Positions 2,769-39,333 are shown, numbered from the stretch's first letter. The stretch is 64,000 nt of DNA from Sumerlaeia bacterium (GCA_040219255.1 JAVJSW010000049.1:58067-122066); one strand, 5' to 3'. Notes: generated by a model from the sequence alone, not told the origin. Made by a program: numbers and translations.

Positions 2769-3864
2769 TGTTGTATTTCGTTATCTTTGCTTGGGTGTTG
2801 CCATTGCTGGGGTGGCCTCAGTCTTCGCCGGAGAAGGTAATCCGAGTATTCCTACGAGTTGCTTGCCCCAGGAAAGCATTTGCTATGGGGATCCGAACGA
2901 CCCGCAACCATGTCCGGCTAACTCGGGAAACCCAAATCCAGACGTATGTACGGGAACGTCAAATGGACTGACCGTCGACTGGCATTGGTACCAAATCTGT
3001 GTTGAACGTGAACTCTGTGTAGGTGACAAGATTGATGAATCCGTCATCCGTATCAACGGGTTGCAGCATCCAACAGTACTCCCGGTTCAGTACAGCCCGT
3101 CAGTGGTTACCGAGGCAGGAGTTATTGCTGTGAATGTCAGCTTTGCCTACCCTTGCTGTAGAAACTACGACTTCGGGTGTTGGGGTGACCCGGTCGGAGT
3201 GACCCGGACGGTGTTTATCAAGGTTCATGAATACGTCAGGAATGGTGATGTGGTTCCGCGTGGAGGTATGCGACGAATTGCGGCCGTCATGGGCATAGAT
3301 TCGAGTAATAATTTGCATAATCACGACTATCGCCATGCGCCCGCACCAAGAAAAGATGTTACTGGCTTCGATTATGGTAAGACCGCATCTACTATTGCTA
3401 ACGACCTATGCTTTGTAGACGTTACCGCGAACTATTATACCAATGCTTTTTGTCAATACACATTGACGGTAAGTAAGGGTGCTGTTGCTGGGAGTTACGC
3501 GATCGCGAGCGTTGGGGCGGAGTTGTCCTCGCCAAATGGAAGTAAAAACAAGGGGTACGGAGTAACTACGGAAAACGAAGCACTAAGCGTAACTTTTATT
3601 TTTGGGACACTTTTGGAAGTGTCTTGTAGTCCCGTAGGGAATACTCACACCGCGGATGGAAACTTCACATTGGCTATATCGGACGAAGAGCAGAAAAACC
3701 CGCACGAACCCAAGAAGACCCACGATATCACAGACCCAACCGACTTGACGGTCGAAGCACAGGCTAGGATTAATCTTAGCTTTTCCATGGCAGACGCCTA
3801 TATATTGGGTTCAATTAGCGAGAGCGCACCAGACTCAGGCAAAGTTTTTGATTGGGGGAACTAA
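2758..3864 (+). CDS. Hypothetical secreted cysteine-rich protein (13 Cys, 368 aa); low-GC island gene A.
   Basis: ORF 2737..3864. Met at residue 8 begins MKFSVVFRYLCLGVAIAGVASVFA (signal peptide). AT-richer codon usage than the flanks. No motif I recognise. Confidence 0.6.
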   Translation: MKFSVVFRYLCLGVAIAGVASVFAGEGNPSIPTSCLPQESICYGDPNDPQPCPANSGNPNPDVCTGTSNGLTVDWHWYQICVERELCVGDKIDESVIRINGLQHPTVLPVQYSPSVVTEAGVIAVNVSFAYPCCRNYDFGCWGDPVGVTRTVFIKVHEYVRNGDVVPRGGMRRIAAVMGIDSSNNLHNHDYRHAPAPRKDVTGFDYGKTASTIANDLCFVDVTANYYTNAFCQYTLTVSKGAVAGSYAIASVGAELSSPNGSKNKGYGVTTENEALSVTFIFGTLLEVSCSPVGNTHTADGNFTLAISDEEQKNPHEPKKTHDITDPTDLTVEAQARINLSFSMADAYILGSISESAPDSGKVFDWGN

Positions 3865-3867
3865 GTG

Positions 3868-4842
3868 ATGGGGAGCCTGTCTAGAATAATTCCTAGTCCA
3901 TGGATGGCAGCATTTCTTGCATTGGGATTGGTTTTTTGCTACAATTCCGCGGCTATTGCGTCCGATTCAACGGTTGTAGATTGGAAAATGGATGCCGCAT
4001 GTGAGAACGACTTTTCTTCTTTCTTGGCAGATGAGGATGTTAGAAACGCCCTCAATGAACGGTATTCGCAAATAGAAGAATTACTTCTTGAGTTTGAAGG
4101 CGACAAATTGCCGATCAAGGTGTGGTTTCAGAAGTCGGTCTGTATGGATTTGGAAAAGCTCAACATCAACTTTTCAAGAGTTGATCGGGAACAATTTCCC
4201 AGTTTTTCGGCCTTCATTAGATGGAGCAATGATGCATTCGTCGGCGAAGCTACGGAGAGTATCAATACCGTCATGAGAGAAGGTATTACCCTGCAGAGCG
4301 CAGAAACTGACATCGAGGACTTCACGGTGTTTGCCGCAGCAGTCAGGGACTTGCTCCGTAACCATTGGTGCAAGGGTGAGAATTTGTACATTTGGAGAGA
4401 GAGGTTGTCTCCGCAAGTTTCAGCTGCTGCGGACGAATATGGGAATGTTGTGTCAGGCGGTTTGGCTCATGAAGAGTACGACGCACTTGTCGGCCAATTG
4501 GTAGAGTTTGACCTAGGGATTCAACTAAAGGCCCAGGTACAATCACTAGTGAAAGTATATTCTGATGATAGGCTAAATATATTTACAACGGGGCTGTACT
4601 ACCGCCGTTCCTATGACGAAGATCCACTAGAAGTCTATAATTCGTACGTGAAAGGCTGTTTGGACTGTCGCATTTTTCATGCGGAAATCTCGAAGCACCT
4701 GAATGGGTTTTATCTTTACCCGGTTTTCGATGCATTCACATTTGGAAAAACTCGGAAAGTTCACAGAGTTTCTTCGGCGTCGCTGAATGACCCTGCGTCT
4801 GATAGTCTCATCCCCTTTGATGTCGATGAGTACTGCGATTAA
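3868..4842 (+). CDS. Hypothetical secreted protein (325 aa); low-GC island gene B.
   Basis: ORF 3865..4842 (GTG then ATG). Signal-like N-terminus MMGSLSRIIPSPWMAAFLALGLVFCYNSAAIA. Begins 1-4 nt after the gene A stop (coupled). Low GC. Confidence 0.6.
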   Translation: MGSLSRIIPSPWMAAFLALGLVFCYNSAAIASDSTVVDWKMDAACENDFSSFLADEDVRNALNERYSQIEELLLEFEGDKLPIKVWFQKSVCMDLEKLNINFSRVDREQFPSFSAFIRWSNDAFVGEATESINTVMREGITLQSAETDIEDFTVFAAAVRDLLRNHWCKGENLYIWRERLSPQVSAAADEYGNVVSGGLAHEEYDALVGQLVEFDLGIQLKAQVQSLVKVYSDDRLNIFTTGLYYRRSYDEDPLEVYNSYVKGCLDCRIFHAEISKHLNGFYLYPVFDAFTFGKTRKVHRVSSASLNDPASDSLIPFDVDEYCD

Positions 4843-5016
4843 GCAATTCTACTCGGCTGGCTCTTATGGAGGACAAATTGAACTGCCGCGAGGCATAGGA
4901 TTTTCCCCATTGCCCCCGCCCGCCCCTTCCCCTTCCCTGTCAGGCGCAATCCCTGACGGAGCGTTTGCCTCGTGCGATTTCCCAGTGAGTTGTGGGCCTG
5001 CGGCGAGCAGGCTCGC

Positions 5017-9641: not shown

Positions 9642-10574
9642 TCAATTCACGGGGAGGGGTTGGTCGAGGGTTTGGATGAGGGCGGTGATGTTTTCCAACT
9701 CTTCGATAGAATAGGCATGAACGATCAATTTTCGTTTTTCATCCAGCGCGGTGGCATCCACACTGTCGGGAGCCGAGATAGACAAAATGGCTCGAGCCAG
9801 GTCCGAAGGTTTCTCATGTTCAAGGCGGAAGACGCGGATCGGTCCTCCATGGACGCAGAATTGATGTCGTTGAAACCACATGTTCGTGGAAACATGATAT
9901 CCACGCTCCTCGCAACCTAACCACCTCCAATCATGTGGAGCGCACAAGGTGTCGAGGGCTCCTTGCAAGGTTTCCGTGGTCAGAACCAAATTCACATGGA
10001 CGTCGGCTTTTGCCAAGTGACCTATAGGACGAATGTCCGTTGCATAACGATTGGAAAGTATCTCGAGTACATCCCTCAACGGAACCTTTCGAAGGATCGT
10101 CAATTTCGATGCGATCTCCGGCGTCAACACACGTCCAGGGCCAGAACTCTCGTAGAGTGATTTCAATTCTTCCGGTGACGGTAGGTCGGCTGCCCCACTT
10201 CGCCGTCTGCTCTCAATCCACGTTCGATCGGAATAGAAGTATCCGCCATAGAAGTTCTTCTCCCAACTCCCATCGGTCTGGTCGGCGAGAAGAGACAGCA
10301 CGCTTTCGAGCGCGGGGGTCGTGAGCTGGTCCTCGGACTCGAGCGAGAAACTAACCGGCAGCGTCAACTCGACCAGTCCCGAAGGGCAGACGCTGATCCC
10401 AGATGCTTTCGATAGAATCGCCAAAGCCTCACGAACCGGCACATCACGATACACCGTCCGCGAAGTCACGGCTTCCTCTCTGATTGGCGAAGAGATCGCC
10501 CGACCCGCAGGCGCCCCGGCTAAAGCCAATGGCGCCAACGAAAGACAAAGGTAAAGTAGAGCTGGTCGGAACAT
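9642..10574 (-). CDS. Periplasmic protein built of secretin-N-terminal-like modules (STN-like + NolW-like), no secretin pore domain; putative secretin partner.
   Basis: Signal peptide MFRPALLYLCLSLAPLALAG. VPVREALAILSKASGISV (STN-like). IRVFRLEHEKPSDLARAILSI...LIVHAYSIEELENITALIQTLD (NolW-like alpha/beta module). The 3' two-thirds of the gene is noticeably lower in GC than the 5' third. Confidence 0.6.
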   Translation of the reverse strand: MFRPALLYLCLSLAPLALAGAPAGRAISSPIREEAVTSRTVYRDVPVREALAILSKASGISVCPSGLVELTLPVSFSLESEDQLTTPALESVLSLLADQTDGSWEKNFYGGYFYSDRTWIESRRRSGAADLPSPEELKSLYESSGPGRVLTPEIASKLTILRKVPLRDVLEILSNRYATDIRPIGHLAKADVHVNLVLTTETLQGALDTLCAPHDWRWLGCEERGYHVSTNMWFQRHQFCVHGGPIRVFRLEHEKPSDLARAILSISAPDSVDATALDEKRKLIVHAYSIEELENITALIQTLDQPLPVN

Positions 10575-10644: not shown

Positions 10645-11208
10645 CTACGACGGCGCCGCGGCCGCTTCCCCCACGTCCTCCTCCACCGCCAGATCCAACG
10701 CCTCCACCACCGGCTTCAGCCGCTGCAAAACCCGCCGCTCATCGTAGATCAGCAGGCGGTTGCCCTCCTCGTCCACGACGATGCGGCCGTGGGCGCGCGA
10801 GAGGTGCGGGGCGATGAGCGGAATCAGTTCGCTGGCGGGGCGGTGCTCGAGCTGGAGCACCATCGGCCGGGGGCGGTCGCCCAGCATTTCGCGGTCGTAA
10901 AACGCATGGTCGCAGAGGACGAAATCGCCTCCGTCCCGCCGGAACCACACCCATTCGTTTTTCGCCGCGATTTCCGAGAGGGCGTTCTCCAGCGTCGAAC
11001 TCGTCGCCCGCAGGCTCACCCGCGCCGCCGTCACTTCACCCTCCGCCACGATCCGTTCGCGAAAACCATAGCCCAACGCCGTCAGCACCACCGTGGCGGG
11101 CGCGTCATGGAACGCCAGCGTGATCGGCCGGCTCGTGGCGATGTCCGCCGAACCCGCGCACGCGGGCGACACAAGGAGGCTGAGAAGAGCAAGCACCACA
11201 TACCGCAT
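10645..11208 (-). CDS. Small periplasmic protein with secretin-N-domain-like fold (STN/NolW-like), first gene of the secretin operon.
   Basis: Signal peptide MRYVVLALLSLLVSPACAGSA. ITLAFHDAPATVVLTALG (STN-like). MVLQLEHRPASELIPLIAPHLS..GRIVVDEEGNRLLIYDERRVLQRLKPVVEALD (NolW-like). 70-nt gap to the next gene on the same strand. Confidence 0.55.
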   Translation of the reverse strand: MRYVVLALLSLLVSPACAGSADIATSRPITLAFHDAPATVVLTALGYGFRERIVAEGEVTAARVSLRATSSTLENALSEIAAKNEWVWFRRDGGDFVLCDHAFYDREMLGDRPRPMVLQLEHRPASELIPLIAPHLSRAHGRIVVDEEGNRLLIYDERRVLQRLKPVVEALDLAVEEDVGEAAAAPS

Positions 11209-11418
11209 GATTTCGAAAACCCCAGGTGGCCTGACTGCGGAGGGTGGCAGAAGTAGGCGTCGTCTTCAAGGGAAATGACTGACAAAACGCATTGGGAGTT
11301 ACAAACACGAGTTGCGAAATCATTGCTTTAGGATTTTTTTGACCATTCGATAAATGGCGAAAGGGATTGTGATACTCGTCCAAACCTGGAATCCTCCGCG
11401 TTTAAGACGACTCCCTGG

Positions 11419-13257
11419 GTGAAGGCCACGAGAATGAAGGGCGCCACGCTCTTACTTTCAACCCTATTTTTGATTGTGGGACGGATGAGCCTTTTCGCCG
11501 CCACCCCGCTCTTCCACGATGCCACCACCTCCCTCGGCATCACCCACAGCCACCAGTCCGAATCCATCCCCGGCGACCCCACCGCCAACGTCCAGTGGAT
11601 GACCGGCGGCGTCGCCGCCGAGGACTTCGACGGCGACGGCTGGATCGACCTGTACGTGCTCCAGGCGGCCGAGGCAGGCAAGAACCTCTACTATCGCAAC
11701 CGGGGCGATGGCGCCTTTGTCGAGGAAGGCCGCGCCCGGGGCGTGGATGTCGCTGGCCGCTCCTTTGGCGTGGTGGCCGGCGATTACGACAGCGACGGCG
11801 ACATCGACCTGTTCGTCAGTTTCTGGACCGCCCCCCACATGTTGCTCATCAACGATGGCCTCGGTCAGTTCCGGCGCCGCACCCTTTCCGGCCCGCAAGG
11901 CATCGAGCACTTCAACGTGATGAGCCCATCGTGGGGCGACATCGACAACGACGGCGACCTGGACCTGGCGCTGGGCCAATGGACCAGCCGCGAAACCGGC
12001 AACTTCTGGATCTACCGCAACCTTGGCGGGGGAGCCCTCGCCCCGCCCGCACCCCTGCGCGACTGGCAGACCACCCCCCAGTTCTACGTCTTCACCCCCC
12101 GCTTCGCCGACGTGAACAGCGATGGGTTCCAGGATCTCCTGCTGGCCTGCGATTTCGAAAACTCCCAGCTCTGGCTCAACGACGGCACTGGCGAGTTCAC
12201 CTACGCGGGCAAGGCCGCTGGCGTCGGCATTGACCAGAACGGCATGGGCGCCGACGTGGCCGACCACGACAACGATGGCGACCTGGATTGGTTCGTAACC
12301 AGCATTTTCGTCCAGAACAGCCGGTTCGGAAACCGCCTTTACCGCAACCGGGGCAATGGCACCTTCCTCGATGTCACCGAACCGGCTGGCGCGGCGGATG
12401 GGTCATGGGGCTGGGGGGCCAGTTTCGGCGACCTCGACCTCGACGGCGACCTCGACCTCTTCCACGTCAACGGCTGGTCCACCGAACGATTCCTCGGCGA
12501 CACCTGCCGCCTCTTCGTAAACCAGGGCAACGGGCGCTTCATCGAAGCCGCCGCCGCCGCCGGAGCCGCCGACCCGGGCCAGGGCCGGGGCATGGCCATG
12601 GCCGATTTCGACAACGATGGCGACCTGGATATCTATGTGGCGAACAGCTTCATCATGACGCGCGAGCGAGGCATTATGCATCCCGCCCCGCCCGCCCTGC
12701 TGCGCAACGACTCACTGACCAGCGGCACCTGGCTCAAGGTGCACCTCGAAGGCCGCGCCCCAGTCCATCGCCAGGGCGTCGGTTCGCGCGTGCGGGTTCG
12801 CACCGGGGCCAGGACTCAACTGCGGGAACTCCACGCCTCGTCGAACTTCCTGTCCTCCGGCCCGGGACGCATCGCCCACTTCGGGCTCAACGGCGAGATC
12901 GAAGCCGACGAGGTCCGCGCCGATTGGGTGGGCGGCGACACATCGATTTTCTACCGCGTGGCGGCCAATCAGGATCTTCTCATCGAGCAACCGGGCGCCG
13001 CACTTACCAGCCGCACCGTCCACGCTGGCACGCCCTTCGAAGCCACGTCCGGCAAGGCGGGCGATGGCCTCCTGCGAATGTGGACGGCGGCCGGCGAGAG
13101 CAAATCCGATCCCGCAACCTTCGTCTTTTCAGTCACCGGACCGGCCACCCTGACCCTCGAAACGCGCAGCCCCGACGGCGCCACGCTCCTGAGCCGCGAG
13201 ACCCTGCGGCTCACCGTCCTGCCGCCGGGCGACGGCGTGAAGTGGGTGGTGCGCTAA
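11419..13257 (+). CDS. FG-GAP repeat / ASPIC-UnbV (CRTAC1-family) secreted protein.
   Basis: Signal peptide. Repeated DxDGDGxxDLxV / DNDGDLD calcium-binding FG-GAP motifs at least 6 times. C-terminal UnbV_ASPIC signature RELHASSNFLSSGPGRIAHFGLNG. Confidence 0.85.
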   Translation: MKATRMKGATLLLSTLFLIVGRMSLFAATPLFHDATTSLGITHSHQSESIPGDPTANVQWMTGGVAAEDFDGDGWIDLYVLQAAEAGKNLYYRNRGDGAFVEEGRARGVDVAGRSFGVVAGDYDSDGDIDLFVSFWTAPHMLLINDGLGQFRRRTLSGPQGIEHFNVMSPSWGDIDNDGDLDLALGQWTSRETGNFWIYRNLGGGALAPPAPLRDWQTTPQFYVFTPRFADVNSDGFQDLLLACDFENSQLWLNDGTGEFTYAGKAAGVGIDQNGMGADVADHDNDGDLDWFVTSIFVQNSRFGNRLYRNRGNGTFLDVTEPAGAADGSWGWGASFGDLDLDGDLDLFHVNGWSTERFLGDTCRLFVNQGNGRFIEAAAAAGAADPGQGRGMAMADFDNDGDLDIYVANSFIMTRERGIMHPAPPALLRNDSLTSGTWLKVHLEGRAPVHRQGVGSRVRVRTGARTQLRELHASSNFLSSGPGRIAHFGLNGEIEADEVRADWVGGDTSIFYRVAANQDLLIEQPGAALTSRTVHAGTPFEATSGKAGDGLLRMWTAAGESKSDPATFVFSVTGPATLTLETRSPDGATLLSRETLRLTVLPPGDGVKWVVR

Positions 13258-13415
13258 GGCGAAAAGATATTGCTTGCGCTCGAAAGGGATCACGGGAATA
13301 GATTTTTCCTGATCAGCAAATTTACCAGATGAATTCATCAGGCCGCCTTTCTTCCAAGGGACGACCCTCATCCGAATTGCTCCCGGGGACATTGATTTCG
13401 CTCGAGAATGGCTCA

Positions 13416-14822
13416 ATGATGAAACTCTCGGTTTTTCTTTTCTCGCTCCTAATCTGTTCCGTCAGCACGAGTGGTCAGTCGCAACAGACTGCGGATTCAC
13501 AGGAATACGTTTTGTCTGTATTTGAAGCCCATTTGAGGGCGATGCTCGACTTGAGTTCTGTTCAGGGCTTCGGCACCTTTGAGACAATTCAGTATGGAAG
13601 GCCTACCGAGGTTGATCAAGGCGTTCTTGCCAGCCGGATGCGGGAGTACAAAGCGTCATTCTCTCAAGGCGTTCCTAGTTCGCAAGGCATGACGGATGAG
13701 CAGGCATACGCGCTGGCTCTTCATTCTTTTGAGAAACCGACAGAACGGATTCAAGCCCCCTTTACTTTAGCCAGGTATCACGATCAGTTCACAGTAACAT
13801 TTCGAAACTTGATCGTTCAGACTTCGAGTTACGGGGATAATGGCAATGTCACAACTCATGCTCAGCCAAAGCTCCAAGCCTTTTCGAGTCGAGGAGATTT
13901 GACTGTTCGATTTTCTGAAGGGTGGGAGGCCACGCGAGGGAAGAACACTGCGGAAATCGAAGAGACTGCCAATATCCCTTACGTCATGTTTTGGGGATTG
14001 GGCTCATTTCTCGATTCGCGTTTCCATGACATCAATACTACTGGCTTCCTGATTCATATGTCAAGACAGAATCCCTCCATCATTTCGGAAAGCCAACAAG
14101 CAATTGAAATCAGAATCGAGAATCCCGCAACTAAAGTCCCTGACATCTTTGTTTTTGATAAGAACAAGGACTTTGCTTTACTGGAGAGGCGGACATATCG
14201 AATGGGTTCGTCTGGCGAACCTTACTTGCATTCACATGATGTATACAGTGAGTATGTTTCATCGAATGGCCGATGGTGGCCCCGCTTGACCGAGCGAATT
14301 CGTTATCGCGACCCACAGCCAAATACCGACTCCGAAATTGACAGGAAAGAGCGGATCGCTTTCGACGAGATCGCCGTTGATGGTATCGTCGAGAAGGAGA
14401 AGTACGATTTCCTGATCCCTGCCAATACTCATTTTCAGGCTGGCTATGGTTTGAAAAACCAGGCCATCCTTGCGAAGTTGCCATACTTGCAGGAGTTTCC
14501 CGTTCATTTGTCAAGTATCGAAGAGAGCTTTCTTGACGCACCCGTTCCAGGTGTCAACGTCCACGACGATTTCAACTTGTCCGAGTCCGAAGCTCAGGAA
14601 GACATTCCAAGTCGTCAGCAAACAGCGATTTCGAAAAACCTGAGTCCCCCAGACGGTGAATCAAGCGATGTTCGAGAAGCTGAGCCGCGTGCAAACACAG
14701 CCACCGGGCGGACCTCTCAGTTTCCCAGGAATCTAATATATTTTAGCCTGGCCTTGACTGGTATCCTTGCGGCTGTCGCTGGGCTGGTAGCCCTGACCCG
14801 GCTAATCGCTACGAAACGGTAA
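13416..14822 (+). CDS. Hypothetical protein with N-terminal signal peptide and C-terminal transmembrane anchor (469 aa); low-GC island 2.
   Basis: ORF 13329..14822; Met30 begins MMKLSVFLFSLLICSVSTSG. C-terminus NLIYFSLALTGILAAVAGLVALTRLIATKR is a TM helix with a basic stop-transfer. GC is much lower than the flanks. No recognisable catalytic motif. Confidence 0.6.
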   Translation: MMKLSVFLFSLLICSVSTSGQSQQTADSQEYVLSVFEAHLRAMLDLSSVQGFGTFETIQYGRPTEVDQGVLASRMREYKASFSQGVPSSQGMTDEQAYALALHSFEKPTERIQAPFTLARYHDQFTVTFRNLIVQTSSYGDNGNVTTHAQPKLQAFSSRGDLTVRFSEGWEATRGKNTAEIEETANIPYVMFWGLGSFLDSRFHDINTTGFLIHMSRQNPSIISESQQAIEIRIENPATKVPDIFVFDKNKDFALLERRTYRMGSSGEPYLHSHDVYSEYVSSNGRWWPRLTERIRYRDPQPNTDSEIDRKERIAFDEIAVDGIVEKEKYDFLIPANTHFQAGYGLKNQAILAKLPYLQEFPVHLSSIEESFLDAPVPGVNVHDDFNLSESEAQEDIPSRQQTAISKNLSPPDGESSDVREAEPRANTATGRTSQFPRNLIYFSLALTGILAAVAGLVALTRLIATKR

Positions 14823-15102
14823 TCGGCAAGAGAAAGTCAATCTGACCGCTCTTGATCGATTGCTGTGAATTCATGTCTGTCGAGTGGGCCCTGGGCGTCA
14901 AAGATAGGAAGTGTTTCGAAAGGTCGGGAGGCAACGGCCATGCGGATCGTGGATGAAGCTCCTAACTCGATATTTCGCCTGAGAAGTTAGAATTAGGCCG
15001 GTTTTCCGAAACCGTCGACATCTTCAGATGAAGGTGTTAACTACCTCAAAGCTCGTCTGGGCAATCGGCTAGATCACAAGCTTTCTCGCGTATCTAGGCA
15101 GC

Positions 15103-30623: not shown

Positions 30624-31250
30624 TCACAGCCCCCGGTGCGGTTCCGGCAGGGGCCGTTGGGCCTCGTAGATGTCGGCCGGCGGGTACCAGCCTTCCTCGT
30701 CCTGGATGCGGGCGATTTCCGCCAAAGCGAGGCGGAGCCACTCAGGGGGGTTCGGGACGGTGCAGCCGCGATGGTGCTCGAAAACGATAATCCGGATCGG
30801 CCCGGCGCCCTCGAACCCGTCGGCGATCCAGGATTGGCCGTAGCGGTCGTAGCTCAGACAAAGCGGATCGCGCAGCGATTGCGTGATGTGAAGGCATTCG
30901 TGGGTGAGGCGAATGCGGCGGGCGAGGACGAAGTGGCTGATTGCCAGAATGGCAAGGGCCACGCAAGAAATCAGGATGAGCAGCAATCCCCCCACAACCC
31001 ATTCCAGCTCCGTTGAGGCGCTGCCCTCCCGAACGGCCTCGAAGCCAACGGCCAGGCCAAGGAGGGCCAGGGGCGGAACCACGCAGGTCCATCGATTGTA
31101 GTGCGCGGGCCAGTTCCAAATCTGAATGCGATTCGCCATCGCATCCGCCAGCCGGTCGGCGACAGGCGGTTGGACGAAGGGTTCGGTGCGGGTGGAGATT
31201 CCGATTTTCATGGGGTCGATCGAGAAGCCGCCGGACGCGGAGGCGGCCAT
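30624..31250 (-). CDS. Hypothetical membrane protein with HExxH motif (HECLH) directly after a TM helix; last gene of the terminase module. Start at 31250 or 31211.
   Basis: ORF 30624..32255. Only the C-terminal ~200 aa are non-degenerate; upstream is Arg/Pro junk antisense to the terminase. Two TM helices (VVPPLALLGLAVGF; WVVGGLLLILISCVALAILAISHFVLA), then RLTHECLHITQSL. Confidence 0.5.
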   Translation of the reverse strand: MAASASGGFSIDPMKIGISTRTEPFVQPPVADRLADAMANRIQIWNWPAHYNRWTCVVPPLALLGLAVGFEAVREGSASTELEWVVGGLLLILISCVALAILAISHFVLARRIRLTHECLHITQSLRDPLCLSYDRYGQSWIADGFEGAGPIRIIVFEHHRGCTVPNPPEWLRLALAEIARIQDEEGWYPPADIYEAQRPLPEPHRGL

Positions 31251-31315
31251 TCCATCCAGGGCGAGGTGTGGCCCCGTAGCTTTGCAAGAGTCGGGCTCGT
31301 TTTGACAAGGGCGAA

Positions 31316-33070
31316 TCAGCCATGGCACAAGTCTCTCCTTTTCAAAGGTTTTTGGCCGGGGCGAGGAGCGTGATGGAGGCTTTCGGCTTCGAAATCGGAC
31401 CCGCTCCCTCGGCGCTGTGCCGAACGTTGGGCGAGGGCGGCGGCCCCGGCGGCGGCGTCGAGCGCGTCGTCGTGGGCGGTGCGGGGAAAGCGCGCCAGTT
31501 CCTCCCAGAACTCTTCCGGCAGGGTCTCGCCCAGCACCAGGCGGCCATTCGCCAGCAGCGGCTCCAGGGCGGCGATGCGGGCTTCTTTGCGGCGCGTGGG
31601 TTTGACGACTTCGATGACGAGATCGGCTCCAGGAAGGCCCTCGGCGCCGCGGCGCCGGCGCTCCTCTTCGATGGGCAGGGTCAGCAGTTCCTGGAACCCG
31701 GTGCCTTCCACGGCGAGGCGCTCGAAGGGCAGCTCCTCGTGCATGGCGAAGAGGGCGGCGACCTGCTCGCTCGGTTTGGCGCGTTTGACCCAGAGGTCGA
31801 GGAGGATGAGGAGGCCGCCCTCGGCCACCGCGACGCGGGCGAGGGCGGCGAAGTCGCCTGTGCCTTGGGCGCGGCTCTTCCCAAGGGCCGAGTCGAGGAA
31901 GCCGAAGACGCGCAGGGGTCCCTCGACGCGGCGGGGAGGCTGGGCCGGGGCGCCGTGGCTGGCGGGCGGCAGGAGGTCGACGGCGCCGCCGGTGGCGGGG
32001 CGGGCGCGCCAGTAGCGCTCGGGTTCGAAGAGGGCGTCTTCGGGGCCGAGGGGCTGGTTCTGTTTCTCCTGATAGAAGGCGCGGCGGCCGTTGGCGATCA
32101 TCTGGGCCATGAGGTGCTCGATGTCTTCGTGCTCGGGCCAGAGGACGGCGGTTCCGGCCTCCATGGCGCGGCGGTGCTCGAGGAAGTATCCCCGGGCGGC
32201 GGCGCGGCGGCCGGGGGTGGCCGGGTCCGAGAGCAGGCGGCGCCATTCCTCCCACGCGGGCGAGGGCGGCGGGAAGGCCTGGACGGATGGCAGGACGAGG
32301 CCTTCGAAGTCCGGGCGCCCGATGAGCGCGGGCAGTAGTCCGGCGGGATGGAGGATCGTGCCGACGGCCAGCATATGGGTAGCTCCGTCGCCGAGGTGCT
32401 CGATGACCTCGGCGAACCAGTCGTGGGTCTTGGCGCGGCGCCGGGGCGAATCGGCGGCGGCGGTGGATTCGGCGTCGTCGAGGATGATTTTCGTGGGGCG
32501 CCAGCCGTCGTGGCTGATGCCGCGCATTTCGGCGCCACAGCCAAAGGCTTCGACGCGGACGCCGCCCACAACGAGGGCGCGTTCGGTGCTCTCGACGTTG
32601 GCACGGCCGCAGAGTTCGGGATAGAAGCGGGTGATGGCCCCCCGGCCCAGGAGTTCGGCGCGCAGGGCGGCGAGGCGCTGCTGGGCCTGGCGCTGGGTGG
32701 CGGAGACGAGGACGATGTAGCGCTCGCGGCGGTAGGCGAGGTCGTGGAGGACGAGGGCGAAGCTGGCGAGGGTGCTCTTGGCCGAACCGCGCGGAGCGGC
32801 CACGGCGAAGCGCAGCCCGGCGCGATCGGGAAAGGGGGGCTCGCCCATGCGCCGGTGCCAGGCGAAGAGCTGGCGGTGGAACGGCGCGAAGGGCAGGCGG
32901 GCGAAATCCGGCAGCGCCAGGCGGACGAAGAGCGGCAGGTCGGCGGCGGCGCGCTCGCGCAGGAGCGCCGGGTGCCGCCGCGGGTTAATCGTCTTCAGAA
33001 GCTGATGAAAGGTGGCCGGCGAGCAGGTCCGGACCCAGTTTTTCGAGGTGGGCGAGGAAGTCGTCATCAT
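31316..33070 (-). CDS. Phage terminase large subunit-like protein (ATPase + RNase-H-like nuclease).
   Basis: Walker A AAPRGSAKST. Walker B-like KIILDDAES. C-terminal nuclease-fold Asp residues in FGFLDSALGKS...GDFAALARV and ARFPRTAHDDALDAAAG, matching the TerL terminal-nuclease (terminase_6C / TIGR01630-like) pattern. Confidence 0.75.
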   Translation of the reverse strand: MMTTSSPTSKNWVRTCSPATFHQLLKTINPRRHPALLRERAAADLPLFVRLALPDFARLPFAPFHRQLFAWHRRMGEPPFPDRAGLRFAVAAPRGSAKSTLASFALVLHDLAYRRERYIVLVSATQRQAQQRLAALRAELLGRGAITRFYPELCGRANVESTERALVVGGVRVEAFGCGAEMRGISHDGWRPTKIILDDAESTAAADSPRRRAKTHDWFAEVIEHLGDGATHMLAVGTILHPAGLLPALIGRPDFEGLVLPSVQAFPPPSPAWEEWRRLLSDPATPGRRAAARGYFLEHRRAMEAGTAVLWPEHEDIEHLMAQMIANGRRAFYQEKQNQPLGPEDALFEPERYWRARPATGGAVDLLPPASHGAPAQPPRRVEGPLRVFGFLDSALGKSRAQGTGDFAALARVAVAEGGLLILLDLWVKRAKPSEQVAALFAMHEELPFERLAVEGTGFQELLTLPIEEERRRRGAEGLPGADLVIEVVKPTRRKEARIAALEPLLANGRLVLGETLPEEFWEELARFPRTAHDDALDAAAGAAALAQRSAQRRGSGSDFEAESLHHAPRPGQKPLKRRDLCHG

Positions 33071-33356
33071 CGGGGGTGGTCTCCGTGAGGGTGTTGAGGC
33101 GATGGGCGAGGAGTTCGATTTCGAGGAGGGTCTTGGTCATGGCGAAGGCATTCTTGAGTTCCGCCAGACGGTCCGGCGCCGGCAGGCGCGCGTGGGAGTT
33201 TTCGGCCTCGGAGAGGGAGGCGTCGAAGAGGGCGAGCCAGCGCTTGAGGAGCCCGTGGGCGAGATCGAGGGTGGGGCGCCATTGGGGCTCTTGGGGTGGA
33301 GGGGTTGGCTTGGACATGGGTGAGGGGGGCCTTTCGGTGGCGAGTTGGAAAGGCAT
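32985..33356 (-). CDS. Small acidic helical protein upstream of and overlapping the terminase gene (candidate small terminase/DNA-recognition subunit or regulator). Start uncertain (33356 or 33317).
   Basis: ORF 32985..33422. Overlaps the terminase start by ~85 nt, a common small/large terminase arrangement. No motif recognised. Confidence 0.4.
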   Translation of the reverse strand: MPFQLATERPPSPMSKPTPPPQEPQWRPTLDLAHGLLKRWLALFDASLSEAENSHARLPAPDRLAELKNAFAMTKTLLEIELLAHRLNTLTETTPDDDDFLAHLEKLGPDLLAGHLSSASEDD

Positions 33357-33416
33357 GGAAACACAGACGGTTTCGTTTGTCCCCTCATGTGGAGCTTCGG
33401 GAGAAAGAAAGACAAA

Positions 33417-33488
33417 ATACACTTATCAGACAAGATTCACCTGTCAGACAAAACGCACCTATCAGACAAGACAGACCTGTCAGACAAG
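33417..33488. repeat. Four tandem 18-bp direct repeats (iteron-like): ATACACTTATCAGACAAG / ATTCACCTGTCAGACAAA / ACGCACCTATCAGACAAG / ACAGACCTGTCAGACAAG. Consensus A-N-N-C/G-A-C-(C/T)-T-R-TCAGACAAR.
   Basis: Read directly from the sequence. Unit length is exactly 18 with no spacers. The array lies ~60-130 nt 5' of the small ORF/terminase operon on the minus strand and ~280 nt 5' of the Fe-S carrier gene on the plus strand. Confidence 0.8.
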
Positions 33489-35464: not shown

Positions 35465-35760
35465 AGGTGCAAAAAGGGCCGAGACGGCCGGAAAGGCAAG
35501 GGAAACAGAGAGGACGAGCGCTTGGCGGTTTTTTTTCGCCTGGGGTCTGGAGTGGCCAAAAACGAGCGGTAAGCTCTTGAATGATTCCTTAAATTTCCAG
35601 GTGATCCCGCCGGGATCGGTGTAGATTGCGTTTTTTGTACCGCTGGACTTGGTGATGTGAGTCTTTTCGACTTGCCGGTTCGTCCGTGAGTCCCTACATT
35701 TTCCTGTTCATTTTGAGAGAGTCGCCTCTCCAGAAGACCTGCTGCCAGGAAGGTTCCGAT

Positions 35761-38700
35761 ATGACATTGGGCAAACATCGAAACTCGGATTCCCACGCGC
35801 CAGGCGGGCCCGCATGGGCTGGGCTCTTGTTGACAGGTGCGCTGTTGATGGCGGCGGGAAGCGCCTGGGCGGCTCCACCGGCGAATTACTACGACACCGC
35901 CGACACCACTAACGGCACAACGCTGCGGTCGTCCCTGCACAATATCATCGATGGGCACACCGTCTATAGCTACACGGCGGCCTACGATATTATCGCCGAC
36001 GCGAACGAAGATCCGAACAATTCGAACAACACCATTTTATTTTATACTGGCCGCTCGACACCGAAAACCAACCAGGGCGGCAACGACAGCGACCCAGCCA
36101 CCGGCGGCTACAACCGCGAGCACATCTGGCCCCAGAGCGCCTTCAACGAAAACAGCCCGATGAAGTCCGACATGCACGCGCTGTTGCCCGCCGACGCGGA
36201 CGCCAATGGCCGCCGCAGCAACTATCCCTTCCACACGGTGACGACCTCGACCTACGAGTTCTTCGGCAACAAGGTCGACACGGACAACTTCGCCGCGGGC
36301 AACATCTTCGAACCCCGCGACGCCGTGAAGGGCGATGTGGCCCGCGCGCTGTTCTACATGGACGTGCGGTACGAGGGCGACAGCGGCGAGCCGAACCTGG
36401 CGCTGAGCAGCAGCGGCTATCCCACCGGCACCGGCAGCGCCCTGATGGGGTACCTGGACGAACTGCTGGCCTGGCATGCGGCGGATCCCGTCGATCAGTT
36501 CGAAATCGACCGCCACGAGTACATCTACGGTTTCCAGAACAACCGCAACCCGTTCATCGATCATCCGGAATGGGTGGATTGCGTTTACAACAACAATTGC
36601 AGCAACGACACGACCCCGCCCGATCCGCCCATGGGGCTGGCGGCGAATGGGGGCGATGGGTCGGTGTCGCTGACGTGGAATGCCAACAGCGAGGGCGACC
36701 TCGACGGCTACAACGTCTATCGCTCGACGACGATGGGCGGGCCCTATTCGCAGATCAACGGCGCCTTGGTTCCAGCGCCTTCCTACGTGGACAACACGGT
36801 CACCAACGGCGTGACGTATTACTATGTGGTGACGGCGGTCGATACGGCGAACAACGAGTCGAACGACAGCACGCCCGCCTCGGCGACGCCGGAAACCGGG
36901 CCGGGCCTGATCGTGGCGGGGCCGATGGCGGAACCGGCGACGATTTCGTCGCTGCGGACGACGGCCTTCGACGCGCCCTGGAATTTCGATGTAACCATCA
37001 TCGACGATCAGGCCAACCCCGGCGCCGACAGCGATCCGACGCTGATTTCGCAGATTGTCTTCACCCCCGGCACGGGCAACGACTTCGCGAATTGGACGAG
37101 CGTTCTGGCGGGGGCGCGGCTGACCGATGGCACCCACTCGGTTAATGGCACGGTCGGCGCGGCGGGGCTCACCTTCGCGCTGACGAACGGGCTCAACGAA
37201 ATCGGCCACATCGCGGACAACGGTACGAAGACCTATCAGTTGAAGGTCTGGCTGAAGGAAAGCGCCACCGGCGTGGACAACGGCAACCTGGTGTTCGCCC
37301 TGGCGAGTTCGGGCATCGCGACGGAAGCGGCCGGTTCCTCGACCGTTGGCAGCAGCTCGGCGGACAGCGGCTCGACGAACAACGCGATCGAGGTGGTGGC
37401 GACGGAGCTGCGCTTCGCCAGTCAACCGCCGGACACGATCGTCGCCACGGATTTCGCCGCCTCGGTCCACGCCACCGACAAGTACGGTCGCCGCGATACG
37501 GACGCTTCGGGAAACGTAACGCTGTCGCTGGACACGGTGAACGCGGGGATTCTCTCGGCGGCAGGCGGTCTGACAAAGGCCCTCGCAGCGGGCCTGGCGA
37601 GCTGGAGCGACCTGGAAATCGACACCGGCGAAGCCGGCGTGGGACTGCTGGCGAACGCTACGGGCTTTGCGGAGAAGCGCAGCGAGAGCTTTGACGTGCT
37701 GCCCTCGGGCGGCGGCTCCGGCACCCCGGTTTTCGTGAACGAGATTCACTATGACAACGATGGCGGCGACACTGGCGAGTTCATCGAAGTCGCCGGCCCG
37801 GCGGGAACCGATCTGAGCGGCTGGACCATCGTGCTCTACAATGGCTCGAGCAGCCTGAGGAGCCCTTACTCGCCCACCATGAATCTGTCGGGTACGATCC
37901 CGGACTCGACCGGCAACGGTTTCGGCTTCCTGAGCTTCTTCCAGGCCGGCATCCAGAACGGCGACCCGGACGGGCTGGCGCTGGTGGACGACTCGAACAC
38001 CCTCATCCAGTTCCTCAGCTACGATGGGTCCTTCGTCGCCGCCAGCGGCATCGCGGCGGGCCTGACCTCGGAAAACATCGGCGGCGAGCCCACCACTACG
38101 CCCATCGGCGAGAGCCTGCAACTGACCGGCACGGGCTCGGTGTACGAGGACTTCACCTGGGCCGCAAGCACCGCCACGAACACGGCGGGCGCGCTCAACG
38201 GCAGCCAAACGTTCCAGCCCGCGGGCGGAACACTGAACGCCAACGGCGTGCTGGAATTCGCCTCGGCCAGCCGCGCCGGGTCCGAGGACGGCGGCGCCAT
38301 CGTGGTGTCGGTGCTGCGGCTGGCGGGCACGGCGGGGGCCATTGCGGTGCCGTTCTCGGTCGGCGGCGCCAGTACCGCCTCGGGCGCGGACTACACGATC
38401 GCCACGGCCAGCCCGCTCAACTTCGCCGACAGCGACGACGTCCAATCCATCACCATCAACCCGGTGGTCGATTCGGATCACCTGGAGGGGGACGAGACGA
38501 TTGTCCTTCAGTTGGGCGCGCCCACTGGCGGAGCGGCGCTGGGCGCTCAGAGCGAAGTCGTGGTGACGCTGCTGGCCAGCGACCGCACCCTGATCCCCAG
38601 CGGCACGAACCCGCCGCCGCTGGAATTCGCCGAGGGTGTGCGGGCGACGGTGGACTTCAACGACGTGTCGGCCGCGGGCGCTGGCTTCGCCGCCAATCTC

Positions 38701-39333
38701 GTCAAGGACAACGCGGCCATCGTGGGTCTGTCGTCGAGCCTCGGCGTGTACTGGGATTTCACCGTCGAAACCGGATTCGCCTTCGGTGGCGAGGTGCTGG
38801 TGACGCTCGAATACCGCGACGGCGAGCTGAACGGCGTGGATGAGAACACGATGACGCTGGTGAAGGCCAACTCGCCGGCCGGACCCTGGCAGCCCGTACA
38901 GATCGTCGAACGCGACACCGTCAACAACACTATCTCCGCCATCGTCACCGGGTTTTCGACCTTTACGGCGACCAACGATACGGTGCTGTGGGTGGACCTG
39001 GTGGCTTTCGAGGCGGAGGATCTGGGTTCGGGCGGCGTGCGTGTGACCTGGGAAACGGCGGCGGAGGTCGATTCCCTCGGCTTCCACATCCACCGCGTGG
39101 CCCCCGATGGCGGGCTGGGCGGGCAAGTCACCTCTGGCCTCGTGCCGGCCACGGGCAGCCCCCTCGGCGGTGCGTTCTACGAAGTCCTGGACAGCGAAGC
39201 GTTGGCCACCGGAGAGAGCCGCGGGTACTTCCTGGTGGAGACGGAGACCTCTGGAAAGACAACCACTTACGGACCCATCACGGTATCCGCCGAAGCGCGC
39301 GAGAGCGCCGTGGAGGATTGGACGATCTTCTGA
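35761..39333 (+). CDS. Secreted multidomain nuclease: Endonuclease I (EndA/Dns family) + fibronectin-III + lamin-tail domain (LTD), 1191 aa.
   Basis: ORF 35686..39333; Met26 begins signal peptide (GPAWAGLLLTGALLMAAGSAWAAP). Endonuclease_1 motifs REHIWPQS and NRNPFIDHPEW. FN3 (SVSLTWNANSEGDLDGYNVYRS...YYYVVTAVD). LTD (FVNEIHYDNDGGDTGEFIEVAGPAGTDLSGWTIVLYNGSS). Confidence 0.85.
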   Translation: MTLGKHRNSDSHAPGGPAWAGLLLTGALLMAAGSAWAAPPANYYDTADTTNGTTLRSSLHNIIDGHTVYSYTAAYDIIADANEDPNNSNNTILFYTGRSTPKTNQGGNDSDPATGGYNREHIWPQSAFNENSPMKSDMHALLPADADANGRRSNYPFHTVTTSTYEFFGNKVDTDNFAAGNIFEPRDAVKGDVARALFYMDVRYEGDSGEPNLALSSSGYPTGTGSALMGYLDELLAWHAADPVDQFEIDRHEYIYGFQNNRNPFIDHPEWVDCVYNNNCSNDTTPPDPPMGLAANGGDGSVSLTWNANSEGDLDGYNVYRSTTMGGPYSQINGALVPAPSYVDNTVTNGVTYYYVVTAVDTANNESNDSTPASATPETGPGLIVAGPMAEPATISSLRTTAFDAPWNFDVTIIDDQANPGADSDPTLISQIVFTPGTGNDFANWTSVLAGARLTDGTHSVNGTVGAAGLTFALTNGLNEIGHIADNGTKTYQLKVWLKESATGVDNGNLVFALASSGIATEAAGSSTVGSSSADSGSTNNAIEVVATELRFASQPPDTIVATDFAASVHATDKYGRRDTDASGNVTLSLDTVNAGILSAAGGLTKALAAGLASWSDLEIDTGEAGVGLLANATGFAEKRSESFDVLPSGGGSGTPVFVNEIHYDNDGGDTGEFIEVAGPAGTDLSGWTIVLYNGSSSLRSPYSPTMNLSGTIPDSTGNGFGFLSFFQAGIQNGDPDGLALVDDSNTLIQFLSYDGSFVAASGIAAGLTSENIGGEPTTTPIGESLQLTGTGSVYEDFTWAASTATNTAGALNGSQTFQPAGGTLNANGVLEFASASRAGSEDGGAIVVSVLRLAGTAGAIAVPFSVGGASTASGADYTIATASPLNFADSDDVQSITINPVVDSDHLEGDETIVLQLGAPTGGAALGAQSEVVVTLLASDRTLIPSGTNPPPLEFAEGVRATVDFNDVSAAGAGFAANLVKDNAAIVGLSSSLGVYWDFTVETGFAFGGEVLVTLEYRDGELNGVDENTMTLVKANSPAGPWQPVQIVERDTVNNTISAIVTGFSTFTATNDTVLWVDLVAFEAEDLGSGGVRVTWETAAEVDSLGFHIHRVAPDGGLGGQVTSGLVPATGSPLGGAFYEVLDSEALATGESRGYFLVETETSGKTTTYGPITVSAEARESAVEDWTIF

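Follow-up and report, generated by a model that had tools for sequence, protein, structure and literature searches.

A phage large terminase without linked virion genes in Sumerlaeota chromosomes: a probable case of domestication

Introduction

What is the gene for a phage large terminase (TerL) doing among the housekeeping genes of a bacterial chromosome? The question is raised by a 64-kb stretch (hereafter, the window) of a metagenome-assembled genome (MAG) of Sumerlaeia (candidate division BRC1), in which three co-oriented, overlapping open reading frames (ORFs) on the minus strand and one tandem array occupy positions 30624-33488. The contig spans 240 kb and bears the locus tags RLY93_12645 and RLY93_12650. 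Large terminases are hallmark virus genes, widely used to call prophages and viral contigs. A first-pass annotation, made from the sequence of the window alone, had described the three ORFs as an orphan packaging module consisting of a small terminase-like protein, a TerL-like ATPase/nuclease and a membrane protein with an HExxH motif, and had suggested that the module was either domesticated or a remnant, or alternatively the packaging part of a satellite or gene transfer agent-like element whose structural genes would lie elsewhere. All three ORFs exist as described. We find that the conserved unit comprises two genes, TerL and its small upstream neighbor, and that it is very probably a domesticated, functional and stand-alone terminase module, which recurs across the phylum Sumerlaeota.

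Results

A full-length large terminase with conserved catalytic residues

The 584-amino acid (aa) ORF is a true full-length large terminase. The Walker A, Walker B and nuclease blocks read in the first-pass annotation are all present, in the motifs AAPRGSAKST, KIILDDAES, FLDSALGKS, GDFAALARV and RTAHDDALDA, and the protein matches phrog_38, "terminase large subunit", over residues 31-557 with E=5.4e-76. Among the profiles from other collections, Terminase_6C of Pfam (20.1 bits, cut-off 22.6), TIGR01630 (32.6 bits, cut-off 41.65) and the T7-type NCBIfam model NF033889 (49, cut-off 150) matched below threshold, so that the anticipated terminase profile match was obtained with PHROGs but not with Terminase_6C or TIGR01630; PF17289 is a precomputed match on several orthologues. 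A profile search of PDB sequences with TerL gave no match. The AlphaFold2 (AF2) model of the protein (pLDDT 89.4, pTM 0.85), compared with solved structures using Foldseek, matched the complete TerLs of PhiV-1, T4 (gp17), D6E and Sf6 (gp2) with E=6e-19 to 1e-8 and probability 1.0, in support of the terminase assignment. The top match, full-length with E=6e-19, was the PhiV-1 terminase from the Avs3 complex, and the modeled C-terminal domain additionally matched the nuclease domains of T4 and RB49 gp17 and human cytomegalovirus (HCMV) UL89, as well as RuvC.

An alignment of 22 TerL relatives contains 54 invariant columns, and among the residues identical in all 22 sequences are K98, D198, D199, E201, D393, E455, D534, D535 and D538, along with E181-x-R183-G184, a putative arginine finger by analogy with other TerLs, in which the E-x-R-G arginine acts in trans within the ring. 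Judging by these residues, both the ATPase and the nuclease centers are intact and TerL is apparently a working enzyme. The retention of the ATPase motifs, including the E-x-R-G arginine, weakly suggests that it functions as a motor rather than as a bare nuclease.

TerL stands alone among housekeeping genes across the phylum

We gathered 18 further Sumerlaeota loci with 10-kb flanks (19 including the window; loci are denoted L followed by a number) and drew Pfam-annotated gene maps for nine of them. Within 10 kb of TerL, none of the 19 loci contains a portal, capsid, tail or integrase gene. In the nine mapped loci, housekeeping genes directly abut the module on both sides, only cellular genes occur within 10 kb, and there is neither an integrase nor a transposase; the flanks include hisI, proB, an rpsB-tsf-pyrH-frr-uppS-cdsA cluster, dnaG-pdxA, dnaJ, hisS, RNase Y and glycine-cleavage genes. 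Using every ORF of at least 80 aa from 151 phage or prophage loci with a related TerL as BLASTP queries against all Sumerlaeota loci, we obtained a match to the Sumerlaeota TerL from 151 of the 151 loci and no other consistent match, with the exception of the DNA methyltransferase of a restriction system in L003. As a control, the phages of the sister clade (see below) encode Terminase_2, TerL and an SPP1 portal side by side, and a PHROG scan of the same kind detected a portal and a major head protein downstream of TerL in a Nitrospinales relative.

The window itself conforms to this pattern. It contains no tRNA gene; Pfam identified no phage genes from about 21 to 49 kb, that is, about 10 kb on the hisI side and about 16 kb on the proB side of TerL; and PHROGs, applied to 10 unannotated ORFs of the window, identified no phage gene, the sole match being secretin-like. 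TerL was the one consistent match of ORFs from the 151 phage loci in the window, where three other ORFs each had one weak match from a single phage locus. The first-pass annotation thus proved right on the absence of other phage genes and tRNA genes, and the orphan status extends to the other 18 loci, none of which shows a prophage around TerL.

A tRNA gene lies near TerL in 2 of 14 other Sumerlaeota loci. The sole locus with a tRNA directly beside the module is L087, where tRNA-Ser(GCT), at 9794-9886, is separated from the called start of TerL by about 115 nt on the upstream side.

We additionally built a profile from the SPP1-type portals of the sister phages and searched a set of 5.8 billion proteins. 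The best 120 of 355 matches were all on phage-sized contigs of at most 46 kb, a result that says nothing on Sumerlaeota. A metagenome scan added five more contigs of the clade, all of them short.

Outside Sumerlaeota, counts of BLAST matches proved unreliable as a test for prophages: the Nitrospinales loci scored low, yet PHROGs identified a portal and a head protein there. We therefore make no claim on orphan TerLs beyond this phylum. Many Planctomycetota genomes encode a relative of TerL (about 30% identity), and ahead of it lies a ParB-DNA methyltransferase fusion (phrog_498, E=1e-121), as in L023 (7934-11599) and L070 (7934-11524), with a similar layout in L030, L044, L051-L053, L058 and L063. 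The ORFs downstream of these TerLs have no convincing PHROG match, with a single weak one in L023 to a family of unknown function (E=2e-7). Such loci may represent new prophages or additional terminase loci of an unusual kind.

One ancient capture followed by long residence in the chromosome

In a distance-based neighbor-joining tree (508 columns, Kimura distances, 100 bootstraps), the 20 Sumerlaeota TerL sequences form a single clade with 100/100 bootstraps, whose sister group consists of eight phage sequences from contigs of about 45 kb that have an SPP1-type portal in common. Identity within the Sumerlaeota clade is 35-62%. The closest of 276 IMG/VR relatives is 33% identical to the TerL of the window, and we found no viral contig carrying a TerL of the Sumerlaeota clade. 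The GC content of TerL tracks that of the flanking DNA over a range of 41-72% (r=0.95), with TerL 0-9 points higher; in the window, the gene has a GC content of 0.72, compared with a mean of 0.63, and the orthologues are likewise somewhat richer in GC than their surroundings. Hence, the host-like composition noted at first pass is borne out by the tracking of the flanks, although TerL lies somewhat above the window. The closest relative (61% identity) retains the same Fe-S gene upstream, and the neighbors otherwise vary between loci. Pairs of TerL genes show a dN (nonsynonymous divergence) of 0.24 where dS (synonymous divergence) is saturated.

Taken together, the single clade, the identities within it, the tracking of GC content, the retained Fe-S neighbor and the low dN at saturated dS point to one old capture, long residence in the chromosome and purifying selection. 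These data indicate that TerL was captured once, long ago, near the base of Sumerlaeota, from a tailed phage related to those of about 45 kb with the gene order TerS (the small terminase; Terminase_2)-TerL-SPP1-type portal.

The same evidence argues that the module is neither a decaying remnant nor part of a prophage that becomes visible when the window is extended. An ordinary prophage remnant, or a piece of a larger prophage or satellite reaching beyond the inspected flanks, would be a mundane source of such a gene, given that decaying prophages often leave isolated terminase fragments behind and that most loci were inspected over just 10 kb on each side. This explanation is largely refuted and, in our assessment, extremely improbable: TerL is full-length with all catalytic residues intact in 22 diverse sequences, its clade is monophyletic and confined to one phylum, both genes of the module are under purifying selection, housekeeping genes abut the module on both sides in all nine annotated contexts, and no phage gene other than TerL was seen in the 64-kb window.

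Two of the Sumerlaeota TerL genes have an unusual structure. In L010, a frameshift at about 10267-10318 splits TerL, and either a pseudogene or an assembly error is possible; in L027, an in-frame insertion of about 270 nt (about 11024-11279), in the linker between the ATPase and nuclease domains, is made of 7-mer arrays identical to those upstream of the gene.

A small partner gene overlaps the start of TerL

A hidden Markov model (HMM) built from ten upstream ORFs detected a small-gene family directly upstream of TerL in 13 of the 19 Sumerlaeota loci, and the 151 phage loci gave no match. In a large protein collection, the family has 24 members of 108-200 aa, and all the named ones are from Sumerlaeota. 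Wherever both genes were seen, the window, L002-L004, L168 and L170 among these loci, the small gene overlaps the start of TerL by 17-86 nt, in parallel with the TerS/TerL overlap in the sister phage L086; in the window, the 3' end of the small ORF is at 32985 and its last 86 nt overlap TerL. The dN/dS values for the three closest pairs (0.11, 0.20 and 0.32) demonstrate purifying selection on this gene as well. Thus, the small overlapping ORF pointed out in the first-pass annotation is real and conserved. Its description as small terminase-like holds for its position alone: we attempted to identify the protein as TerS by profile, hhalign and Foldseek comparisons, all with negative results, and a C-terminal motif, RVLEA, that it apparently had in common with phage TerS failed in profile comparison. 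The small protein thus takes the place of a small subunit in the gene order but, having no detectable similarity to a known family, cannot be classed as TerS. The AF2 model, of modest confidence (pLDDT 63), predicts helices at residues 14-40, 48-76 and 84-104 followed by a disordered acidic tail.

We also looked for natural fusions of the small protein with TerL and found none that held up. The N-terminal extensions of the TerL proteins P0094 and P0100 do not match the HMM of the small protein, and the single long ORF of L234, a short contig, most likely results from frameshifts. The TerL ORF as called in L087 and L171 has an N-terminal extension in place of the small gene. On two short metagenome contigs, L175 and L177, translation of hexamer repeats yields (GN)n within the small protein's tail and (TE/TA)n at the N-terminus of TerL, so that short repeats expand within the overlapping coding region.

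The third gene and the surroundings in the window

The two-transmembrane (two-TM) protein encoded downstream of TerL (Table 1) starts at a GTG codon at 31328, behind an AAGGAG ribosome-binding site, and its gene overlaps the TerL stop by 13 nt. All three ORFs show a coding signature in the GC content of third codon positions (GC3), namely 0.82 for the small ORF (outside the overlap), 0.86 for TerL and 0.78 for the downstream ORF. Homologues of the two-TM protein are absent from all other Sumerlaeota loci and from the phage loci, and the protein has no match in Pfam, PHROG, NCBIfam or PADLOC. Its family is tiny, with 19 members among 1.84 billion representatives, and its conserved features are two transmembrane helices and a C-terminal RIQEEEGWY(E/D)P. 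The HECLH of the window protein, on which the first-pass annotation had remarked, is replaced by TRDxL or similar in 16 homologues, and there is no metalloprotease family match, so that we rejected the identification as an HExxH zinc metalloprotease. This protein is a local neighbor in this genome and not a member of the module. Because it lacks homologues at the other loci and because HExxH is not conserved in its family, the conserved unit consists of two genes; the proposed three-gene unit does not stand, nor does its conservation between hisI and proB, given that only the Fe-S neighbor is held in common, and with the closest relative alone.

Table 1. Features of the terminase locus, with positions counted from the first nucleotide of the window
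Feature	Position	Strand	Evidence and remarks
TerL, 584 aa; N-terminal ASCE ATPase and C-terminal RNase H-like nuclease	31316..33070	-	PHROG; AF2 model with Foldseek; alignment
Walker A/P-loop, AAPRGSAKST, residues 91-100	32771..32800	-	Sequence reading; P93, R94, G95, A97 and K98 invariant
Walker B and catalytic glutamate, IILDDAE, residues 195-201	32468..32488	-	D198, D199 and E201 invariant
Nuclease acidic residues D393 (LDSALG), E455 (EGTGFQ), D534/D535/D538 (HDDALDA)	31457..31894	-	Invariant in 22 sequences
Small partner gene; 123 aa from ATG 33356, 110 aa from ATG 33317 (NCBI, P0254)	32985..33356	-	HMM family; dN/dS; AF2 model
Two-TM protein, 234 aa (possibly 208 aa from M27)	30624..31328	-	Coding, GC3 0.78; outside the conserved module
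18-bp tandem array, x4.4, core TTGTCTGAYAGGTG containing the palindrome TGTCnGACA	33410..33488	.	Top-scoring repeat of the window; module membership uncertain

The housekeeping flanks named at first pass, hisI, an Fe-S carrier and proB, were confirmed with Pfam. On the hisI side, the genes encode HisI (PRA-CH), MgtC, a PPC-domain protein, an MFS transporter, a peptidase M24 and a T2SSE ATPase; on the other side, they encode an Fe-S_biosyn protein, ProB (AA_kinase and PUA), a secreted endonuclease I fusion, NAGPA, a UDP-glucose dehydrogenase and an ECF sigma factor. The secreted protein (1,215 aa, 35686-39333), which combines an N-terminal Endonuclease I domain (E=8e-50) with a Calx-beta domain, is a large extracellular nuclease fusion located 2.6 kb from the terminase module. 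Two patches of low GC content (3001-5000 and 13001-15000; 0.48-0.54 compared with about 0.63) encode secreted proteins without assigned function or PHROG match.

Tandem arrays and the possibility of a mobile module

The 18-bp array, which is by far the strongest tandem repeat of the 64 kb, was absent from the first-pass annotation, and its end at 33488 is the upper boundary of the finding. It occupies part of the intergenic region between the small ORF and the divergent Fe-S gene, 54 nt ahead of the former, and its core, TTGTCTGAYAGGTG, present in four copies in the array, occurs once elsewhere at two mismatches, compared with 0.28 occurrences expected. A Logan contig, assembled independently from the same organism, ends at 33403, a few bases before it reaches the array. 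Comparable short arrays precede TerL in 6 of 18 loci, at distances within 500 bp in L007, L011, L027, L087 and L171. By a rough post hoc estimate, made before the last four loci were added, this represents an enrichment (5 of 14 loci compared with about 1 expected, binomial p of about 0.004). Arrays with units of 7-12 bp are, however, frequent in Sumerlaeota intergenic DNA, and both ACGCAAAG and TCCCAT-type 9-mers recur far from TerL, on which grounds we set aside the assignment of the arrays as pac sites or operators. The 18-bp array is suggestive at best as a candidate operator or pac-like site.

The mapped arrays lie at 5550-5589 in L007, 14292-14422 and 10207-10335 in L087, 9597-9637 in L171, 124-200 in L011, and 9832-9974 and 11077-11279 in L027. 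Distant Sumerlaeota genomes have array units in common (ACGCAAAG/CTTTGCGT and TCCCAT-type 9-mers, sometimes as inverted arrays). By analogy, the short arrays look like a phylum-wide repeat family reminiscent of the cyanobacterial short tandemly repeated repetitive (STRR) heptamers.

Repeats flanking a gene pair bring to mind a selfish mobile two-gene element in which the RNase H-fold nuclease of TerL would act like a transposase or homing enzyme. Mobility would explain the differing chromosomal positions of the module, and besides the frequently flanking short arrays, the copy abutting tRNA-Ser and the near absence of any neighbor common to the loci, beyond TerL and the small gene, are compatible with it. 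We nevertheless consider this scenario very unlikely. No terminal inverted or direct repeats bracketing the module were found in the window, each sampled genome has one locus, there are no near-identical copies in distant genomes, the GC content is fully matched to the host, the closest relative retains the same left-hand neighbor, and the nine annotated contexts lack integrases and transposases.

Discussion

TerL and the small gene occur alone among housekeeping genes, in the window and in relatives from the same phylum, and a viral motor therefore appears to have been recruited to a cellular function. The favored outcome among those that the first-pass annotation had entertained is a domesticated packaging ATPase, based on the monophyletic, host-restricted clade, the invariant catalytic residues and the host-matched GC content. 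This domestication is ancient, with TerL kept in the chromosome under purifying selection and detached from all other virion genes.

For the mechanism, we propose that the small protein would take the role of a small subunit, binding TerL probably via its conserved C-terminal helix and acidic tail, and controlling where and when TerL cuts. TerL would act as it does in phages: docked on a portal, an oligomer would translocate DNA at the expense of ATP and cleave it as an endonuclease. The capsids to be filled would be provided in trans, their source being either structural genes dispersed over other parts of the genome, similar to those of gene transfer agents (GTAs), or sister-clade phages during infection. 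Because the whole ATPase motor is conserved, not the nuclease alone, continued translocation of DNA by a TerL oligomer on a portal is the most economical reading. Packaging into capsids provided in trans is nevertheless a tentative proposal, about which we remain somewhat doubtful. Combined with the domesticated two-gene module, it makes up the overall explanation toward which we lean, if modestly.

Several observations weigh against this explanation. Capsid, portal and tail genes of Sumerlaeota were not seen, either within 10 kb on each side at any locus or in the 64-kb window, and to our knowledge, a dispersed arrangement would be unprecedented, the terminase lying inside the head-tail cluster in the characterized GTAs. 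The small protein has no match in Pfam, PHROG or NCBIfam; hhalign gives a probability of 0.1% against the Terminase_2 TerS of the sister phages; the best Foldseek match of its low-confidence model in the PDB is not significant (E=0.38); and the protein has no obvious DNA-binding domain, in particular no helix-turn-helix (HTH). In addition, no small gene is detectable in four loci of one deep sub-branch (L013, L027, L087 and L171), so that it may be younger than the capture of TerL. Finally, two TerL copies are possibly damaged, by a frameshift in L010 and by the in-frame insertion in L027.

The main rival explanation is that TerL works without capsids, as a regulated enzyme that cuts and translocates DNA and that might be an abortive-infection or other anti-phage effector, half of a toxin-antitoxin (TA)-like pair, or part of cellular DNA processing. 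In the TA-like version, the small acidic protein would restrain the TerL nuclease, as small subunits do in the phages studied. A small acidic ORF overlapping a larger nuclease/ATPase gene resembles antitoxin-toxin pairs and two-gene defense layouts, structural genes are near TerL in 0 of the 19 loci, the genomic position differs between genomes, and one locus adjoins HicB and a BglII-type restriction-modification system. Despite these attractions, we regard capsid-independent use as unlikely. PADLOC, run on all three proteins, returned just a meaningless 15-bit match to JetB (E=0.003, 36 residues), the neighbors are generally housekeeping genes rather than defense islands, monophyly within one phylum and complete amelioration of GC content are unlike the patchy distribution and mobility of defense and TA genes, and, beyond the nuclease, the entire motor is conserved.

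A broader conception, which we offer as a speculative possibility, is that a packaging motor became a cellular machine free of virion genes, with the small protein as a new terminase regulator. Such a machine might be a portal-independent translocase-nuclease with a cellular or defensive role, or a "capsid pirate" that would load host DNA into the procapsids of infecting phages, thereby blunting the infection and yielding transducing particles.

If the domesticated module is what it appears to be, a phylum-wide, vertically inherited, catalytically intact lone TerL would represent a clean exaptation of the packaging motor itself, whereas the known precedents, the GTAs, involve whole head-tail clusters. 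It would raise the testable question of the role of a terminase without a linked capsid. In practice, annotation of Sumerlaeota MAGs will mistake stand-alone TerL genes for signs of a prophage. A full-text literature search retrieved no report of Sumerlaeota terminases, of stand-alone domesticated terminases or of a Sumerlaeota GTA.

Comparison with known systems

The phage TerLs nearest to those of Sumerlaeota (PHROG 38, Terminase_6-type) belong to uncultured phages of about 45 kb (L085, L086, L088-L090, L095, L110 and L014), whose genes include those for a D5-type primase, a Terminase_2 TerS and an SPP1-type portal; among phages with names, Faecalibacterium phage Mushu and Pseudomonas phages DMS3 and MP38 come closest. 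Sumerlaeota TerL has the two-domain fold, the catalytic motifs and the N-terminal helical region of these proteins, being 31-40% identical to members of the sister clade and 28-31% identical to the proteins of the named phages. In phages, however, the TerL gene is preceded by an HTH-containing Terminase_2 TerS and directly followed by the portal gene, whereas the Sumerlaeota genes have neither, are chromosomal and form a clade of their own. The small protein resembles TerS (Terminase_2, T4 gp16-type) in position, size (about 90-120 aa), helical hairpin and acidic C-terminus, and T4-type TerS cores appear among its fold matches, at a level that is not significant (E of about 5). It differs from TerS in lacking sequence, profile or significant structural similarity and an HTH domain.

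Phage satellites offer a second parallel. As with the small terminases of phage-inducible chromosomal islands (PICIs) and the capsid-forming PICIs that possess their own TerS and TerL, chromosomal packaging genes of Sumerlaeota could redirect the capsids of another element. Satellites, however, are patchy and mobile and possess att sites, an integrase and genes for replication and regulation, none of which were seen at the Sumerlaeota loci.

The third comparison is with the terminases of GTAs (RcGTA g2 and the Caulobacter GTA). These lie, as far as we know, within head-tail gene clusters, in contrast to the Sumerlaeota TerL, which has linked structural genes in 0 of 19 loci. As in the GTAs, a cellular lineage has kept a phage terminase that is vertically inherited and host-like in composition, properties evident here from the 100/100 monophyly and the GC correlation (r=0.95). 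As with the GTAs, the beneficiary of DNA packaging by the Sumerlaeota TerL would be the cell and not a virus.

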